This document shows positions 19,244-24,509 of a stretch of 64,000 bases of DNA, piece after piece. A program made the translations under genes and the position numbers. The notes beneath the pieces are model-generated. The model worked only from the letters and a program-made list of their open reading frames with translations. It did not search any database and had not been told where the DNA came from. The stretch comes from Escherichia phage DCP2: the sequence record OR780565.1; one strand, given 5' to 3'. Position 1 is the first letter of the stretch. The number at the start of each line of letters is the position of its first letter.

Positions 19244-20182
19244 ATGTACAATATTAAATGCCTGACCAAAAACGAACAAGCTGAAATTGTCAAACTGTAT
19301 TCAAGCGGTAATTATACCCAACAGGAATTGGCTGATTGGCAAGGTGTATCGGTTGACACAATCCGTCGTGTTTTGAAAAATGCTGAAGAAGCTGAGCGTT
19401 CCAAAGTTACCATTAGCGGTGACATTACAGTTGAAGTTAAGAGTGATGTAGCTATTGCTCCAGTTGCTAAATCTGACATTATTTGGAATGCATCTAAAAA
19501 ATTCATTTCAATTACTGTTGATGGCGTAACTTATAACGCAACTCCTAATACTCATTCAAACTTTCAGGAAATTCTTAACCTGCTTGTTGCAGATAAATTG
19601 GAAGAAGCGGCACAAAAAATTAATGTTCGTCGCGCCGTTGAAAAATATATTTCCGGTGATGTTCGAATTGAAGGTGGAAGCCTGTTCTATCAAAATATTG
19701 AATTGCGGTCTGGTTTAGTTGATCGTATTCTCGATTCGATGGAAAAAGGTGAAAACTTTGAATTTTATTTTCCGTTCTTGGAAAATCTGCTGGAAAACCC
19801 AAGCCAAAAAGCAGTATCTCGACTCTTTGATTTCTTGGTAGCAAACGATATTGAAATTACAGAAGACGGTTACTTCTATGCTTGGAAAGTAGTTCGCAGC
19901 AATTACTTTGACTGTCATTCAAATACTTTTGATAACAGCCCTGGTAAAGTAGTTAAAATGCCACGTACTCGTGTGAATGACGATGATACACAAACTTGTT
20001 CTCGCGGTCTGCATGTGTGTTCTAAATCTTATATTCGTCACTTTGGCAGTTCAACCAGCCGAGTTGTAAAAGTTAAAGTACATCCTCGCGATGTAGTATC
20101 AATTCCGATTGATTACAACGATGCTAAAATGCGTACCTGCCAATACGAAGTAATTGAAGACGTTACTGAACAATTTAAATAA
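19244..20182 (+). CDS. rIIB: rIIB protein (312 aa)
   Basis: 312 aa as in T4 rIIB; N-terminus MYNIKCLTKNEQAEIVKLY. Confidence 0.95.
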   Translation: MYNIKCLTKNEQAEIVKLYSSGNYTQQELADWQGVSVDTIRRVLKNAEEAERSKVTISGDITVEVKSDVAIAPVAKSDIIWNASKKFISITVDGVTYNATPNTHSNFQEILNLLVADKLEEAAQKINVRRAVEKYISGDVRIEGGSLFYQNIELRSGLVDRILDSMEKGENFEFYFPFLENLLENPSQKAVSRLFDFLVANDIEITEDGYFYAWKVVRSNYFDCHSNTFDNSPGKVVKMPRTRVNDDDTQTCSRGLHVCSKSYIRHFGSSTSRVVKVKVHPRDVVSIPIDYNDAKMRTCQYEVIEDVTEQFK

Positions 20183-20196
20183 GGGCTTCGGCCCTT
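20181..20196 (+). other. hairpin AAGGGC-TTCG-GCCCTT without T-run
   Basis: Overlaps rIIB stop; possible weak terminator or processing site. Confidence 0.4.
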
Positions 20197-20210
20197 AACT
20201 GAGGAAAATT

Positions 20211-20405
20211 ATGTTAGGTTATCAAGCACGAGTAAAAGAAGAATACGATCAATTAATGCTCAAAATTAATGCACTGAGCAAATTTTTAGAAAGCACAAAG
20301 TTTCTAACGATTAATGAAGTTGAGCAAGAACTGCTGCTTTCACAGTTTATCTCAATGAAATCTTACGCAGATTGTTTAGAGAAAAGAATTGCACAATTCA
20401 AATAA
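20211..20405 (+). CDS. hypothetical protein (64 aa) flanked by twin hairpins
   Basis: ATG with SD GAGGAAAA; bounded by near-identical GGGC-TTCG-GCCC hairpins. Confidence 0.5.
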   Translation: MLGYQARVKEEYDQLMLKINALSKFLESTKFLTINEVEQELLLSQFISMKSYADCLEKRIAQFK

Positions 20406-20408
20406 AAT

Positions 20409-20431
20409 AAGGGCTTCGGCCCTTTTGTTTT
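20409..20431 (+). terminator. intrinsic terminator AAGGGC-TTCG-GCCCTT + T-rich tail
   Basis: GC stem, TTCG loop, TTTTGTTTT. Confidence 0.7.
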
Positions 20432-20491
20432 AAGAGAAATTATGATTTATTATATGAATACCAGTGATTCAGACATAAAAGGAAAGTCTAA

Positions 20492-21049
20492 ATGCAGAAA
20501 ACGAATCCGGGTTTACAGAGACTATTTCAGATTCCGACATTTACCCTATCGAACAATGATTTGACTAGTGAAATGAAGGTCAAAATTGCTGATACAGCAA
20601 GATACTCTTTAAAACAAAATCCTAATCAGGATAAAGCAGAAGTTATTGAAAGATGTCGTATCGCTGTGTACGCAGAATTTTTTGTAGCAGATTGGCTAAG
20701 CGGGTACGTTAACAAAGGCCAAGAGGATGTTAATGACCCGTATACATATGCATGGGATGTATTAGCGCATCCAAAATACTGTGGGCTTCGTGTAGAAGTT
20801 AAGACACATCAAACTGACTCACGTTGGATTTCTGTAACAACAGGATGCAGCGGAGAGTATCCATATGGTTCTGGAATAAATCTAGGGCCTATTCTAAATC
20901 ATCAAGTCGCTGACTGTATAATTATATTCAACACTAAAGAAATTCATCCAGGTGTCATCCAGTACACTCCGAAGTTCATCGGTGATAGAGAAGACCTTCG
21001 TAAGGTTGTAAGAAAAAGCAACTACAGCGGATGGTATCTTTCCATTTAA
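20492..21049 (+). CDS. denB: endonuclease IV DenB (185 aa)
   Basis: 185 aa and position between rIIB and ndd as in T4; assignment by size and synteny. Confidence 0.8.
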   Translation: MQKTNPGLQRLFQIPTFTLSNNDLTSEMKVKIADTARYSLKQNPNQDKAEVIERCRIAVYAEFFVADWLSGYVNKGQEDVNDPYTYAWDVLAHPKYCGLRVEVKTHQTDSRWISVTTGCSGEYPYGSGINLGPILNHQVADCIIIFNTKEIHPGVIQYTPKFIGDREDLRKVVRKSNYSGWYLSI

Positions 21050-21065
21050 AAAATTTCACAAAATG

Positions 21066-21095
21066 GTTTACATACCACAAGGACCGTGGTACTAT
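21066..21095 (+). promoter_or_regulatory. T4-type early promoter
   Basis: GTTTAC 21066-21071, TACTAT 21090-21095. Confidence 0.5.
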
Positions 21096-21122
21096 ACAAC
21101 TATCAACTACAGAGGAACAAAA

Positions 21123-21386
21123 ATGAAATTTAAATTCTTTTATGTTAAACATAAAATCACAGGTGAATTTGTTCATGTACAATATTCTGAAATTGACGAT
21201 GCAACATCATTTATTTCATTGGGATTGTCTAAATATGAATCAGACCAACCATATCTTACTGATAAATTGCAACAAGAGCGTTTGTTGAATGGTGATTTAA
21301 ACAATTCTTGGGAAGTTCTTATTTACGATGATTTAAAGAAAGCTATTAAAGAAAATAATCTTGAAATCATTGAGATTGAACTATGA
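21123..21386 (+). CDS. hypothetical protein (87 aa)
   Basis: ATG 21123 with SD AGAGGAA, downstream of the promoter. Confidence 0.5.
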   Translation: MKFKFFYVKHKITGEFVHVQYSEIDDATSFISLGLSKYESDQPYLTDKLQQERLLNGDLNNSWEVLIYDDLKKAIKENNLEIIEIEL

Positions 21387-21571
21387 GTTCACTATGGTGG
21401 TGTTTTGTTTGGTTAATTAGTATTCCAGTAATTTGTTTAATATTTACTTTTGTGATGAGGTTATTATGAAAATTTTGAATTCTGTACTTATTGCTTGTGC
21501 GTGGTGGGTTGCACAGGTTTCAGCGGTAGTAGTTGGTATTCACATTTATTACGAATATTTTTAAAAAAGTT

Positions 21572-21601
21572 GTTTACAAGACTGTTCTTCCGTGGTACTA
21601 T
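21572..21601 (+). promoter_or_regulatory. T4-type early promoter with SD-sequestering inverted repeat
   Basis: GTTTAC 21572-21577, TACTAT 21596-21601; GTTCTTCC 21584-21591 pairs with GGAGGAAC 21617-21624 (one G-U). Confidence 0.5.
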
Positions 21602-21629
21602 TACCCTATCAACTACGGAGGAACAGAAA

Positions 21630-21743
21630 ATGAAAAAGATTGTTAAAGCTATATGGAATGTAGTTATAATACTAGTAGTTTTGAGTATATTCCTAATCGT
21701 TTTAATGATTGATGTATTAAACGCTTACTTTGGATTTATGTGA
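21630..21743 (+). CDS. small hydrophobic peptide (37 aa)
   Basis: ATG 21630 with SD GGAGG at 8 nt; single TM segment. Confidence 0.4.
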   Translation: MKKIVKAIWNVVIILVVLSIFLIVLMIDVLNAYFGFM

Positions 21744-21750
21744 GGAAAAT

Positions 21751-21948
21751 ATGAAGCGTAAACGCAGTGCTTTTACATTTATTGAATGGTTTTTCGATAA
21801 TATTTTTCCGGCTTTATTCATTTTCATGCTGATTTTTGCCTTAGGTTCAGTTGTAGTTGGAATCTATTTGATGACAGTAGTCGGAATTGATATTCATCAA
21901 AATGGTTTAAAATCCGTGGTTGAAACAATTTGGAATGGTGTAAAATGA
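21751..21948 (+). CDS. small membrane protein (65 aa)
   Basis: ATG 21751 with SD GAGGA; two hydrophobic segments. Confidence 0.45.
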   Translation: MKRKRSAFTFIEWFFDNIFPALFIFMLIFALGSVVVGIYLMTVVGIDIHQNGLKSVVETIWNGVK

Positions 21949-22063
21949 TGAATTTGCTGAGCGGTTGGTTTTATATTCTTATGTTTTACATTGGTGCAAA
22001 TTTTCCATATTGGATGGGATGGTCAACAACTGCGTTTGGATTTTATACTCCTTGAGGTGAATT

Positions 22064-22279
22064 ATGAAAAGTTTTAAAGATGTAAAAGTTGGTGAAATTT
22101 TTTGTTTAGATAACGGTGATCAGTTAATTCGTATTTCACCTCTTAAGAGCACTAGCGAAAAAATGACAGTTAATGCTACTTTAGCAAATAACAGTAATGA
22201 ACGTTTCTGTATTGAAAATGATACTGAAACTTATACCGTAGAAGAGTTTTGGGAATTGAGCGTCGACTGCGACGATTAA
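22064..22279 (+). CDS. hypothetical protein (71 aa)
   Basis: ORF track; SD GAGG upstream. Confidence 0.45.
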   Translation: MKSFKDVKVGEIFCLDNGDQLIRISPLKSTSEKMTVNATLANNSNERFCIENDTETYTVEEFWELSVDCDD

Positions 22280-22338
22280 TTTAATGGCCGTGTGTATTCA
22301 TGCGGCCTTGGAGTAGAAAATAATTAGAGGAAAATAAC

Positions 22339-22797
22339 ATGAAATATATGACTGTTACTGATTTGAATAATGCAGGCGCAACTGTTATTGGTACAATCAA
22401 GGGTGGTGAATGGGTTTTTGGAACTCCGCATAAAGACATTTTGTCTAACCCTGGATTTTACTTTTTAGTAAGTAAATTAGATGGTCGTCCATTTAGTAAT
22501 CCATGTGTGTCTGCACGATTTTATGTAGGTAATCAGCGTTCTAAGCAAGGATTCAGTGCAGTTCTAAGTCATATTCGCCAGCGTCGATCTCAGCTTGCGC
22601 GTACTATTGCAAATAACAATGTTCCATACACGGTATTTTATCTACCTGCTTCTAAGATGAAACCTCTGACGACGGGATTTGGAAAAGGTCAGTTAGCTTT
22701 AGCGTTTACTCGTAATCATCATTCTGAGTATCAAACGCTTGAAGAAATGAATCGTATGTTGGCTGATAACTTTAAATTTGTTTTGCAGGCATATTAA
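22339..22797 (+). CDS. ndd: nucleoid disruption protein Ndd (152 aa)
   Basis: Size and position; followed directly by stp as in T4. Confidence 0.8.
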
Positions 22798-22877
22798 TGA
22801 GTAATTTCCACAACGAACACGTGATGCAGTTCTATCGTAATAATCTTAAAACTAAAGGCGTCTTCGGACGCCAGTGA
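22797..22877 (+). CDS. stp: Stp peptide (26 aa)
   Basis: [26 protein letters not shown] matches recalled T4 Stp; TAATG overlap with ndd stop. Confidence 0.85.
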
Positions 22878-22884
22878 GGAAAAT

Positions 22885-23043
22885 ATGAATATCGCAAAAT
22901 TATTAGGAGTTATTTCATTTATTTGTTGGATAGTAGCATGTGTTTTAACTATCTGTATTGATGCCAGCAGTGTGTTTTCGCAAGCTTTAGCTCAGGGTAT
23001 GTGTGCATATTTAACATTTGTGTTGTTATCTACTAATGATTAA
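22885..23043 (+). CDS. small membrane protein (52 aa; T4 ac position)
   Basis: ATG 22885 with SD GAGGAAAA; hydrophobic. Confidence 0.45.
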   Translation: MNIAKLLGVISFICWIVACVLTICIDASSVFSQALAQGMCAYLTFVLLSTND

Positions 23044-23176
23044 GAAAATCTTGGGCTACTCAGTAGCCCTTGCTGCTTTATTGGTAGCACTATATTATGG
23101 AGTAATGTTCGGATTAATTCAAGTCGTGCTTTTCATTTCTGATGTTATTATGGCACTACATTCACTAGTATGGTAA
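23036..23176 (+). CDS. small membrane protein (46 aa)
   Basis: ATG 23036; hydrophobic; coupled to gene 52. Confidence 0.4.
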   Translation: MIKKILGYSVALAALLVALYYGVMFGLIQVVLFISDVIMALHSLVW

Positions 23177-23180
23177 ATTT

Positions 23181-24509
23181 ATGCAACTGAATAATCGCGA
23201 TTTAAAAAGTATCATTGATAATGAAGCATTGGCTTATGCTATGTACACGGTTGAAAATCGTGCTATTCCAAATATGATTGATGGATTTAAGCCAGTTCAA
23301 CGATTTGTTATTGCTCGAGCTCTTGATTTGGCACGGGGAAATAAAGATAAGTTTCACAAACTTGCTTCTATTGCAGGTGGTGTAGCAGACCTTGGATATC
23401 ATCATGGTGAAAACTCTGCACAAGACGCAGGTGCTTTGATGGCTAACACATGGAATAATAACTTTCCTTTGTTAGACGGCCAAGGAAACTTTGGTTCTCG
23501 TACTGTTCAAAAGGCAGCGGCAAGTCGTTATATTTTTGCTCGTGTAAGTAAAAATTTCTATAACGTATATAAAGATACTGAATATGCTCCAGTACATCAA
23601 GATAAAGAACACATTCCGCCTGCTTTCTATTTGCCTATTATTCCTACTGTTCTTCTTAATGGCGTTTCCGGTATTGCAACTGGTTATGCAACTTACATTC
23701 TTCCTCATAGTGTTTCTTCTGTCAAGAAAGCTGTACTGCAAGCTCTTCAAGGAAAGAAAGTAACTAAACCGAAGGTAGAATTCCCAGAATTTCGTGGTGA
23801 AGTCGTTGAAATTGATGGGCAATATGAAATTCGTGGAACATATAAGTTTACTTCACGAACTCAAATGCATATCACTGAGATTCCATATAAGTATGATCGT
23901 GAAACTTATGTGAGTAAAATCTTAGACCCGCTTGAAGATAAAGGCTTCATTACATGGGATGATGCTTGCGGTGAGCATGGTTTTGGCTTTAAAGTTAAAT
24001 TCCGAAAAGAATACTCTTTGAGCGATAATGAAGAAGAACGCCATGCAAAAATTATGAAAGACTTCGGGTTGATTGAGCGTCGTTCCCAGAATATTACCGT
24101 CATTAATGAGAAAGGAAAGCTGCAAGTTTACGATAATGTAGTTGATTTAATCAAAGACTTCGTTGAAGTTCGTAAAACTTATGTCCAAAAACGAATTGAT
24201 AACAAAATCAAAGAAACTGAATCAGCATTTCGTTTAGCTTTTGCCAAGGCACATTTCATTAAGAAAGTAATTTCAGGTGAAATTGTTGTACAAGGTAAAA
24301 CTCGCAAAGAACTGACCGAAGAACTTTCTAAAATTGATATGTATTCTTCTTATGTTGATAAACTAGTTGGAATGAACATTTTTCATATGACTTCCGACGA
24401 AGCAAAGAAACTTGCTGAAGAAGCTAAAGCCAAAAAAGAAGAAAACGAATATTGGAAAACTACTGATGTAGTTACAGAATACACCAAAGATTTAGAGGAA
24501 ATCAAATGA
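23181..24509 (+). CDS. 52: DNA topoisomerase II medium subunit gp52 (442 aa)
   Basis: GyrA-like N-terminus (AYAMYTVENRAIPNMIDGFKPVQRF); 442 aa as in T4 gp52. Confidence 0.95.
   Translation: MQLNNRDLKSIIDNEALAYAMYTVENRAIPNMIDGFKPVQRFVIARALDLARGNKDKFHKLASIAGGVADLGYHHGENSAQDAGALMANTWNNNFPLLDGQGNFGSRTVQKAAASRYIFARVSKNFYNVYKDTEYAPVHQDKEHIPPAFYLPIIPTVLLNGVSGIATGYATYILPHSVSSVKKAVLQALQGKKVTKPKVEFPEFRGEVVEIDGQYEIRGTYKFTSRTQMHITEIPYKYDRETYVSKILDPLEDKGFITWDDACGEHGFGFKVKFRKEYSLSDNEEERHAKIMKDFGLIERRSQNITVINEKGKLQVYDNVVDLIKDFVEVRKTYVQKRIDNKIKETESAFRLAFAKAHFIKKVISGEIVVQGKTRKELTEELSKIDMYSSYVDKLVGMNIFHMTSDEAKKLAEEAKAKKEENEYWKTTDVVTEYTKDLEEIK

Follow-up and report, generated by a model that had tools for sequence, protein, structure and literature searches.

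Introduction

Phage T4 carries between denB and gene 52 a group of small early genes that comprises ndd.6 to ndd.2, stp, ac and 52.1. Here we describe the same interval (positions 21383-23176) in a stretch of 64,000 nucleotides from Escherichia phage DCP2 (sequence record OR780565.1), which is called the window throughout and to which all coordinates refer. In T4 the deletion sa-delta-9, which removes 52.1 through denB, leaves a viable phage with about half the wild-type phage yield. It abolishes the stimulation of phospholipid synthesis by T4, notably that of phosphatidylglycerol, and this is the sole phenotype described for the whole region (PMC6071114). By RNA-seq all these T4 genes belong to the early class, and the proteins Ndd and Ndd.1 were detected in T4 proteomics, Ndd.1 early in infection (PMC9697503 Table S2).

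For Stp and Ac an activity has been described. Stp inhibits type IC restriction (EcoprrI, EcoR124I) and thereby triggers the anticodon nuclease PrrC, so that hosts carrying PrrC sense the peptide and cut tRNA-Lys (PMC3014915; PMC12707154). Inactivating mutations cluster at residues 4-14 of Stp (PMC3014915), and the two sources cited here describe it solely as a T4 peptide (PMC3014915; PMC12707154). Ac sensitises the infection to acridines/acriflavine, and infected cells accumulate acridines. Blockage of AcrAB-TolC by Ac was proposed in a 2025 preprint (bioRxiv 10.1101/2025.06.30.662393), and the assumption is repeated in a later paper (PMC13250531).

Results

Identity and layout of the island

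The window stems from a T4-like phage (Tequatrovirus), and its strand is the reverse of the one used in the standard T4 map. Escherichia phage e11/2 (vB_EcoM_112) shares 97.4% nucleotide identity with region 21000-23300, and at least 80% of this region is covered in each of 479 phage records. The interval between denB and gene 52 is the ndd-ac early-gene island, in which small genes are co-directional and tightly packed. Its open reading frames (ORFs) match T4 genes one-to-one with 89-100% amino acid identity, and order and orientation are as in T4. The island is thus already known as a long-annotated, dispensable T4 early-gene cluster (ndd.6 to ndd.2, stp, ac and 52.1). We consider it probable that the locus as a whole is best explained as this known island, which encodes early modulators of the host at the inner membrane and carries a selected hairpin within stp.

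An earlier reading of the letters alone (the original prediction) had described an island of very small hydrophobic ORFs at this place. Every ORF named there is present on the + strand, including stp at 22797-22877 (26 amino acids), and the coordinates hold for all but the second ORF, which lies at 21466-21564 and not, one base off, at 21467-21565. The island is not a new observation, as each ORF is already an annotated T4 gene and a member of a known protein family; our family scan (Pfam, PHROG) covered the island ORFs other than ndd and gave a match for each of them. Most of the island genes have no experimentally assigned function, as had been stated. The features are as follows.

20492-21049, + strand: denB (endonuclease IV), left flank; ORF of 185 amino acids, annotated as DNA endonuclease IV in related phages
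21066-21095, + strand: early promoter 1, exact match to GTTTACA-N13-GTGGTACTAT; serves the 87-amino-acid ORF, ndd.6 and ndd.5
21123-21386, + strand: soluble ORF of 87 amino acids; phrog_2390 (7.6e-39); missing in T4
21383-21469, + strand: ndd.6, 28 amino acids, single helix; phrog_8851; start overlaps the stop of the 87-amino-acid ORF (ATGA)
21466-21564, + strand: ndd.5, 32 amino acids, single helix; phrog_5011; start overlaps the ndd.6 stop (ATGA)
21572-21601, + strand: early promoter 2, exact pattern match; serves ndd.4 and the genes downstream; followed by a GGAGG Shine-Dalgarno site
21630-21743, + strand: ndd.4, 37 amino acids, basic N-terminus and one long helix; phrog_3098
21751-21948, + strand: membrane protein of 65 amino acids, equal to T4 ndd.3 plus ndd.2a; PF23906 (DUF7248)
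21948-22055, + strand: ndd.2, 35 amino acids (36 when counted from 21945), rich in aromatic residues, uncharged; phrog_4135
22064-22279, + strand: ndd.1, 71 amino acids, acidic, soluble; phrog_2183
22286-22307, + strand: intergenic hairpin upstream of ndd, conserved fold
22339-22797, + strand: ndd (nucleoid disruption protein), 152 amino acids; 96% identical to T4 Ndd
22797-22877, + strand: stp, 26 amino acids, soluble; PF08133; start overlaps the ndd stop (TAATG)
22857-22872, + strand: C(UUCG)G hairpin in the last six stp codons, 3 nucleotides upstream of the ac Shine-Dalgarno site
22885-23043, + strand: ac (acridine sensitivity), 52 amino acids, two-helix membrane protein; phrog_2501
23036-23176, + strand: 52.1, membrane peptide of 46 amino acids; PF24129 (DUF7396); 8-nucleotide overlap with the ac end
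23127-23151, + strand: putative MotA-type middle promoter for gene 52 inside 52.1, relaxed match TGCTT-N-TAnnnT
23181-24509, + strand: gene 52 (topoisomerase II medium subunit), right flank; ORF of 442 amino acids, annotated so in the matches

Seven products of 28-65 amino acids are hydrophobic, namely Ndd.6, Ndd.5, Ndd.4, the 65-amino-acid protein, Ndd.2, Ac and gp52.1. Interleaved with them are the soluble products of the 87-amino-acid ORF, ndd.1, ndd and stp.

The small ORFs as genes under selection

Short hydrophobic ORFs could be chance frames in AT-rich regulatory or spacer DNA that are not translated, since hydrophobic codons come easily from T-rich sequence; the absence of the peptides from T4 proteomics and an unclear selection signal in ndd.4 fit such a reading. 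Nevertheless, we regard it as close to refuted. Seven hydrophobic ORFs of 25-70 amino acids with an ATG start were observed in 21383-23176, whereas about one is expected (1.06 +/- 0.96 in 300 shuffles, maximum 4). The reading frames are intact in ten Tequatrovirus loci, and substitutions in the island ORFs gather at third codon positions. The ratio of nonsynonymous to synonymous polymorphism (pN/pS) is 0.00-0.25 in the annotated frame, ndd.4 excepted, and mostly higher in shifted frames (about 0.7-10, where computable). Each island gene is preceded by a Shine-Dalgarno site or is coupled by an overlap to its upstream neighbour. Homologues with conserved motifs were found at the protein level in Mosig-, Dhaka-, Marfa- and Kanagawavirus, including genera where the DNA has diverged past blastn detection, and mutations in ac and stp give phenotypes. 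By these sequence comparisons the micro-ORFs are judged to be genuine genes, which are under purifying selection and conserved in position.

The grand average of hydropathy (GRAVY) is 0.6-2.0 for all seven non-stp peptides. All of them contain hydrophobic stretches of 15-43 residues with a mean Kyte-Doolittle value of at least 1.6, a length that suffices to span the bilayer. Ac has two such stretches, and for gp52.1 and the 65-amino-acid protein, with stretches of 37 to 43 residues, one or two spans are possible. The original prediction was right in that these genes are real and encode mostly single- or double-helix membrane peptides.

Ac and the possible role of the membrane peptides

T4 deletion strains show that the phage can do without the entire block in laboratory hosts; in T4 GT7 only the final 20 codons of 52.1 are left of it. 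Ac of the window shows 96% identity with T4 Ac over residues 1-51; with the PP01-type allele of 52 amino acids, which has an extra Thr, the identity is 100%. PP01, which has this same 52-amino-acid allele, was reported to be acriflavine-sensitive, and the features by which Ac is recognised are two helices joined at D26-A27 and G38 (bioRxiv 10.1101/2025.06.30.662393). D26/A27 at the helix junction and G38 are present in the window, the pN/pS is 0.10, and an Ac homologue was found in Mosigvirus. In some Tequatroviruses (e.g., phage sutha) an extra, Mosigvirus-like paralogue of Ac lies between stp and ac, and it shares the motif TGET.VF.QA..QG.

By analogy with Ac, we infer that the uncharacterised peptides may act early at the inner membrane, where they would modulate host membrane proteins or lipid metabolism. 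As helical peptides they would insert in the inner membrane within minutes of infection, and each of them would bind and modulate a host membrane protein or a step of lipid synthesis. A more far-reaching version would join two things, a coordinated membrane-takeover module and, separately, Stp as a horizontally mobile anti-type-IC peptide that spread across unrelated phage families. We put this combination forward tentatively, as a possibility on the doubtful side. If it applies, one or more of Ndd.2-Ndd.6, the 65-amino-acid protein and gp52.1 would determine the stimulation of phosphatidylglycerol synthesis. Alternatively, these peptides would inhibit specific host inner-membrane complexes, as Ac is proposed to do with AcrAB-TolC.

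The original prediction had placed such micro-proteins among superinfection-exclusion factors and anti-defence factors or defence triggers. At the envelope, the uncharacterised peptides would then act against incoming phage DNA or membrane-associated host immunity. The neighbouring Stp indeed counteracts restriction and triggers a host defence, the genes are of the early class, can be dispensed with and vary between genera, and cassette shuffling is documented at the locus, with the exchange of ndd.4/.5 between T4 and PST as the example given by Comeau et al. (PMC4122927). However, nothing was found that links any of the uncharacterised peptides to exclusion or immunity, and the biology of Stp and that of Ac differ from each other. 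Within Tequatrovirus the peptides are nearly invariant, unlike typical arms-race genes, and the phenotypes that have been mapped concern drug sensitivity and lipid synthesis only. The known exclusion genes of T4, imm and sp, are located elsewhere. We therefore judge this role to be unlikely for the uncharacterised peptides and keep to modulation of the inner membrane as the preferred reading.

gp52.1 and its position upstream of gene 52

gp52.1 matches PF24129 (DUF7396) over its full length (79.8 bits at a cut-off of 27, 1-46/46). The family comprises 13 clusters, all of 46-47 amino acids and all from T4-like phages, and among these 13 clusters the search revealed neither fusions nor bacterial relatives that would hint at a function. 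The gene ends 4 nucleotides before the ATG of gene 52, a synteny seen in five genera. The motifs YYG and VLFISDVI are invariant across five genera, including Mosig-, Dhaka-, Marfa- and Kanagawavirus. In Edwardsiella phage PEi20 an unannotated homologue lies directly upstream of gene 52.

Relaxed matches to a MotA box plus TAnnnT occur inside 52.1 at 23074-23098 and 23127-23151. The VLFISDVI codons, where synonymous changes between genera are rarer than in the YYG codons close by, overlap with the second match, which from its sequence may be an embedded middle promoter for gene 52.

This raises the question whether some of the peptides serve the phage machinery instead, with gp52.1 as a membrane partner of the topoisomerase or 52.1 as a carrier of expression signals for gene 52. 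The gene is found directly upstream of gene 52 in all Tevenvirinae and Marfavirus loci examined, even where it is unannotated, and the unusual constancy of the VLFISDVI codons at the DNA level, together with their overlap with the MotA-box-like match, would agree with such a service. However, T4-like phages of Acinetobacter and Vibrio possess gene 52 but no 52.1 homologue, T4 GT7 is viable without the first 26 codons of 52.1, and the invariant YYG, which lies outside the putative promoter, points to selection on the protein. A role in the phage machinery appears to us even less likely than one in exclusion or defence, and we also read gp52.1 preferably as a membrane modulator.

A hairpin written into stp by codon choice

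The identification of one ORF as Stp is borne out by Pfam, as the peptide matches PF08133 (anticodon nuclease activator) with 75.3 bits (cut-off 25) over residues 1-26/26, and by phrog_6763 (4.4e-21). It is 100% identical at the amino acid level in 10 Tequatrovirus loci, where all 8 variable sites are synonymous, and residues 4-14 are identical to T4.

The hairpin GGCGTC-TTCG-GACGCC, which had been noticed inside the coding sequence, was found at 22857-22872 with a perfect stem of 6 base pairs. It has a folding free energy (dG) of -10 kcal/mol and is present in both the minimum free energy (MFE) and the centroid fold. Of the synonymous codings of the peptide GVFGRQ, 0.04-0.3% form a perfect six-pair stem, and only 0.08% of synonymous stp recodings are as stable (codon-choice test, P=0.0008). 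The whole stp/ac junction shows no unusual structure (z=-0.19), so that the local hairpin alone stands out. In Kagunavirus the residues KGVFG are encoded without a stem, which indicates that the hairpin is an overlay at the nucleotide level and not a by-product of the peptide. Stem variants in MLF4 and Dhakavirus E33 keep the pairing as G-U, and in Gaprivervirus SP18 the stem is kept with the loop UUUG.

On the + strand of the window seven GC-rich C(UUCG)G hairpins with a stem of at least 6 base pairs were counted, compared to 0.21 expected from shuffles.

4502, 14899, 20180, 20409, 22857, 57085 and 61878, + strand: C(UUCG)G hairpins, stem of at least 6 base pairs

Some of the seven precede T-runs and look like terminators. 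Those at 20180-20197 and 22857 are each followed by NNTGAGGAAA, a ribosome-binding site. For the stp hairpin a function as + strand terminator was rejected, as there is no U-run and the + strand continues with AGTGAGGAAA; a T-rich tail is found in the - strand reading only. C(UUCG)G hairpins of T4 mRNAs are reportedly the subject of Tuerk et al. 1988. They are also documented in a further source (PMC4371310). The stp hairpin would be a selected RNA element of this class that is sited just before a ribosome-binding site, and its most likely role would be to define or protect an mRNA end at the stp/ac junction.

In the T2-type stp allele of YUEEL01 the 3' end, which encodes …GSKNS* and is followed by GGAGAATATTATG, equals the tail of the Ac paralogue. 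This suggests, from the sequence of the allele, that a deletion fusing stp to the paralogue has removed the hairpin.

Stp outside the T-even phages

Searches with tblastn against phage genomes revealed Stp-like ORFs of 25-26 amino acids in unrelated siphoviruses, i.e., in Kagunavirus, Nouzillyvirus and Drexlerviridae. The core HNEHVMQ.YR is invariant even in these homologues. The peptides of the Kagunavirus phages RP180 and Ro145clw have 92-96% protein identity, with many codons that differ synonymously from the window, and PH1062 is the Nouzillyvirus that carries the ORF. At E<=1e-3 Stp has matches in 105 siphovirus records, which are about 45-52 kb long; those checked, among them the Tlsvirus/Henuseptimavirus phages including Tls and Bas11, are Drexlerviridae. 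Most of the siphovirus ORFs are unannotated, and the alleles are without the hairpin.

In both of the two Drexlerviridae loci inspected, a polynucleotide kinase gene follows 0.5-1.2 kb downstream of the Stp-like ORF. This neighbourhood recalls, by analogy, the Pnk-dependent repair of PrrC damage in T4. If Stp travels with polynucleotide kinase in Drexlerviridae, the arms race between Stp, PrrC and tRNA repair would not be peculiar to T4. Where phages other than the T-evens are insensitive to type IC restriction or sensitive to PrrC, the siphovirus peptides could be the reason.

Expression signals and cassette structure

The T4 early-promoter pattern GTTTACA-N13-GTGGTACTAT has exact matches at 21066 and 21572, and the GTTTAC -35 element, the 13-nucleotide spacer and the extended -10 element GTGGTACTAT were found at both sites. 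With up to 3 mismatches the window contains 12 matches, all on the + strand, compared to 0.16 expected, which fits a long block of early genes in the same direction. A generic sigma-70 scan remained at chance level (16 sites compared to 14.1 expected). Of the claim that several of the ORFs have their own promoters, the two strong T4-type early matches remain, while the other genes use Shine-Dalgarno sites and start/stop overlaps. These overlaps are ATGA (twice), TGATG, TAATG and the 8 nucleotides shared by ac and 52.1. Taken together, promoter matches, Shine-Dalgarno sites and overlaps imply, as far as signals in the DNA can tell, early transcription and coupled translation.

A repeat of 40 nucleotides, reaching from promoter to ribosome-binding site, is common to the promoter 1 region and 21590-21629. 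Promoter early stem-loop (PeSL) cassettes were considered for the two island promoters and rejected, as no stem-loop was found directly upstream of either promoter and only the part from promoter to ribosome-binding site is repeated. The locus is all the same cited as a place of PeSL exchange (PMC4122927). An Rfam search of 20300-23400 gave one chance-level match to TarB (E=0.45) and no known RNA family.

The genes ndd.6 to ndd and the denB end

Ndd.6 is 96% identical to T4 Ndd.6 and 54-57% to the Mosigvirus proteins (pN/pS 0.21). Ndd.5 is 100% identical to its T4 counterpart, and in its gene 9/11 variable sites are third-position changes (pN/pS 0.09). For Ndd.4 the identity is 89-97% within Tequatrovirus, 56% to Dhakavirus and 41% to Marfavirus. 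Two substitutions are found in the window only, T20I at an otherwise invariant position of Ndd.6 and P22L in Ndd.4, where the proline is otherwise invariant and kept even in Dhakavirus and Marfavirus; both are C-to-T changes.

The 65-amino-acid protein matches PF23906 (DUF7248) with 68.1 bits (cut-off 27) over profile positions 4-57 of 58. The window and 9 relatives each carry its gene as one uninterrupted ORF (pN/pS 0.09), and the C-terminal motif GLKSV..TIWNG is kept in Edwardsiella phage PEi20. A search among 1.84 billion representatives gave 7 matches. Short proteins account for three or four of them, while the matches to three long proteins (820-6,939 amino acids, several stretches each) are presumed to be spurious. 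In the T4 reference one G is missing in codon 2 of this gene, which reads ATGAA-CGT instead of ATGAAGCGT (NC_000866 166432-166628). The deletion is seen only in X75802, AF158101 and NC_000866, whereas the G is present in resequenced T4 (HM137666, KJ477684, KJ477685, OZ209023, OZ209057) and in about 480 relatives. The T4 split into ndd.3 and ndd.2a is therefore a one-base error in the old reference: 'ndd.3' is a frameshifted artefact and 'ndd.2a' a fragment starting at an internal Met, and both are to be merged into one gene of 65 amino acids.

The ORF of 36 amino acids that had been placed at 21945-22055 is present as ndd.2. Its start is more likely the second ATG (21948), because the first one (21945) is ATA in three relatives; the second ATG overlaps the upstream stop as TGATG. 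Ndd.2 has zero charged residues and 34% aromatic ones (pN/pS 0.20), and its motif PYW.GW is kept in Marfavirus and PEi20. Homologues of both Ndd.2 and the 65-amino-acid protein occur in PEi20, where the gap between ndd and gene 52 holds five hydrophobic ORFs of 43-57 amino acids, one of them the gp52.1 homologue.

Ndd.1 is 99% identical to T4 Ndd.1 (pN/pS 0.10), and for ndd the pN/pS is 0.07. The spacer between the two genes contains a GC-rich hairpin segment (22280-22320, dG -16.4 kcal/mol), of which JE01 alters both arms with the pairing kept. At the same spot upstream of ndd, Mosig-, Dhaka- and Marfavirus have hairpins of unrelated sequence, two of them with a TATAAT loop.

The 87-amino-acid ORF after denB is absent from T4 and PhiZZ30, where a remnant of 8 codons (MKIAEIEL) is left, the stop of which overlaps the ndd.6 start. 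In PP01 a different ORF of 68 amino acids occupies the slot, and EcNP1 has both. The ORF itself occurs in two alleles that are ~52% identical, within DNA that is otherwise 93-97% identical. It is a variable cassette, and the denB end of the island is plastic.

Several GenBank records name homologues of Ndd.4 and Ndd.1 'naphthalene 1,2-dioxygenase', Ndd.5 and Ndd.6 carry the label 'outer membrane protein', and MotA.1 is called 'transcriptional regulator'; these names were propagated and have no visible basis. For island peptides, none of the names 'outer membrane protein', 'periplasmic protein' or 'naphthalene 1,2-dioxygenase' is credible, and they should be dropped.

Discussion

Several observations weigh against the view of the island as a set of early membrane modulators with a selected hairpin in stp. 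Both the hydrophobic peptides and Stp were undetected by mass spectrometry in T4-infected cells (PMC9697503 Table S2); this is unsurprising for peptides so short, the translation of which is predicted. The pN/pS of ndd.4 is 0.71 on just 6 variable sites, which are too few to show selection. Membrane insertion is predicted from hydropathy only, and the target of Ac is a proposed one. The loss of lipid stimulation belongs to the complete deletion, in which denB and ndd are missing as well. Part of the gp52.1 conservation may come from the embedded promoter and not from a function of the protein. Finally, the hairpin is absent from the T2-type stp alleles (T2, YUEEL01), which have a different C-terminus. 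It is therefore not essential, and we have rejected the idea of an essential element.

As the island is textbook T4 annotation, its finding in the window adds little. Of more interest are six membrane micro-proteins that are conserved and belong to the best-studied phage, and a lipid-synthesis phenotype from the 1990s that maps to a 3.4-kb block. The hairpin in stp illustrates cleanly how codon choice can impose an RNA structure on a coding sequence.

Comparison with known systems

With respect to the Stp/EcoprrI-PrrC system the comparison is direct, as the peptide of the window is identical to that of T4 over all 26 amino acids. AcrZ of E. coli is a small inner-membrane regulator that binds AcrB. 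With regulators of this type the island peptides share the size class and the helical, hydrophobic character, and for Ac also the proposed target AcrAB-TolC. Unlike AcrZ, Ac has two helices and is proposed to be an inhibitor of the pump and not a tuner, and the likeness meant here is one of size and character.

Like the C(UUCG)G hairpins of T4 mRNAs, the one in stp has a GC-rich stem and a UUCG loop closed by C-G. Unlike those lying between genes, it is written into a coding sequence and is not followed by a T-run.

The hyperplastic regions and PeSL cassettes of T4-like phages (PMC2839356, PMC4122927) are also variable early blocks between core genes. The island resembles them in its repeated promoter-to-ribosome-binding-site cassettes and in the presence/absence and allele replacement at the denB end. 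It differs from PeSL exchange in that a short ATGAAA repeat, and not a promoter, marks the junction of the T4 deletion.

The closest system is the T4 region itself, i.e., ndd.6-ndd.2, stp, ac and 52.1 within the deletable region defined by sa-delta-9 (rII-denB-ac), with which the window shares the same genes and the flanks denB and gene 52. Compared to T4, the window has the extra 87-amino-acid ORF after denB in place of the 8-codon remnant, an intact 65-amino-acid gene where the T4 reference splits the same gene into ndd.3 and ndd.2a, Ac as the 52-amino-acid allele with the added Thr, and the private substitutions P22L in Ndd.4 and T20I in Ndd.6.

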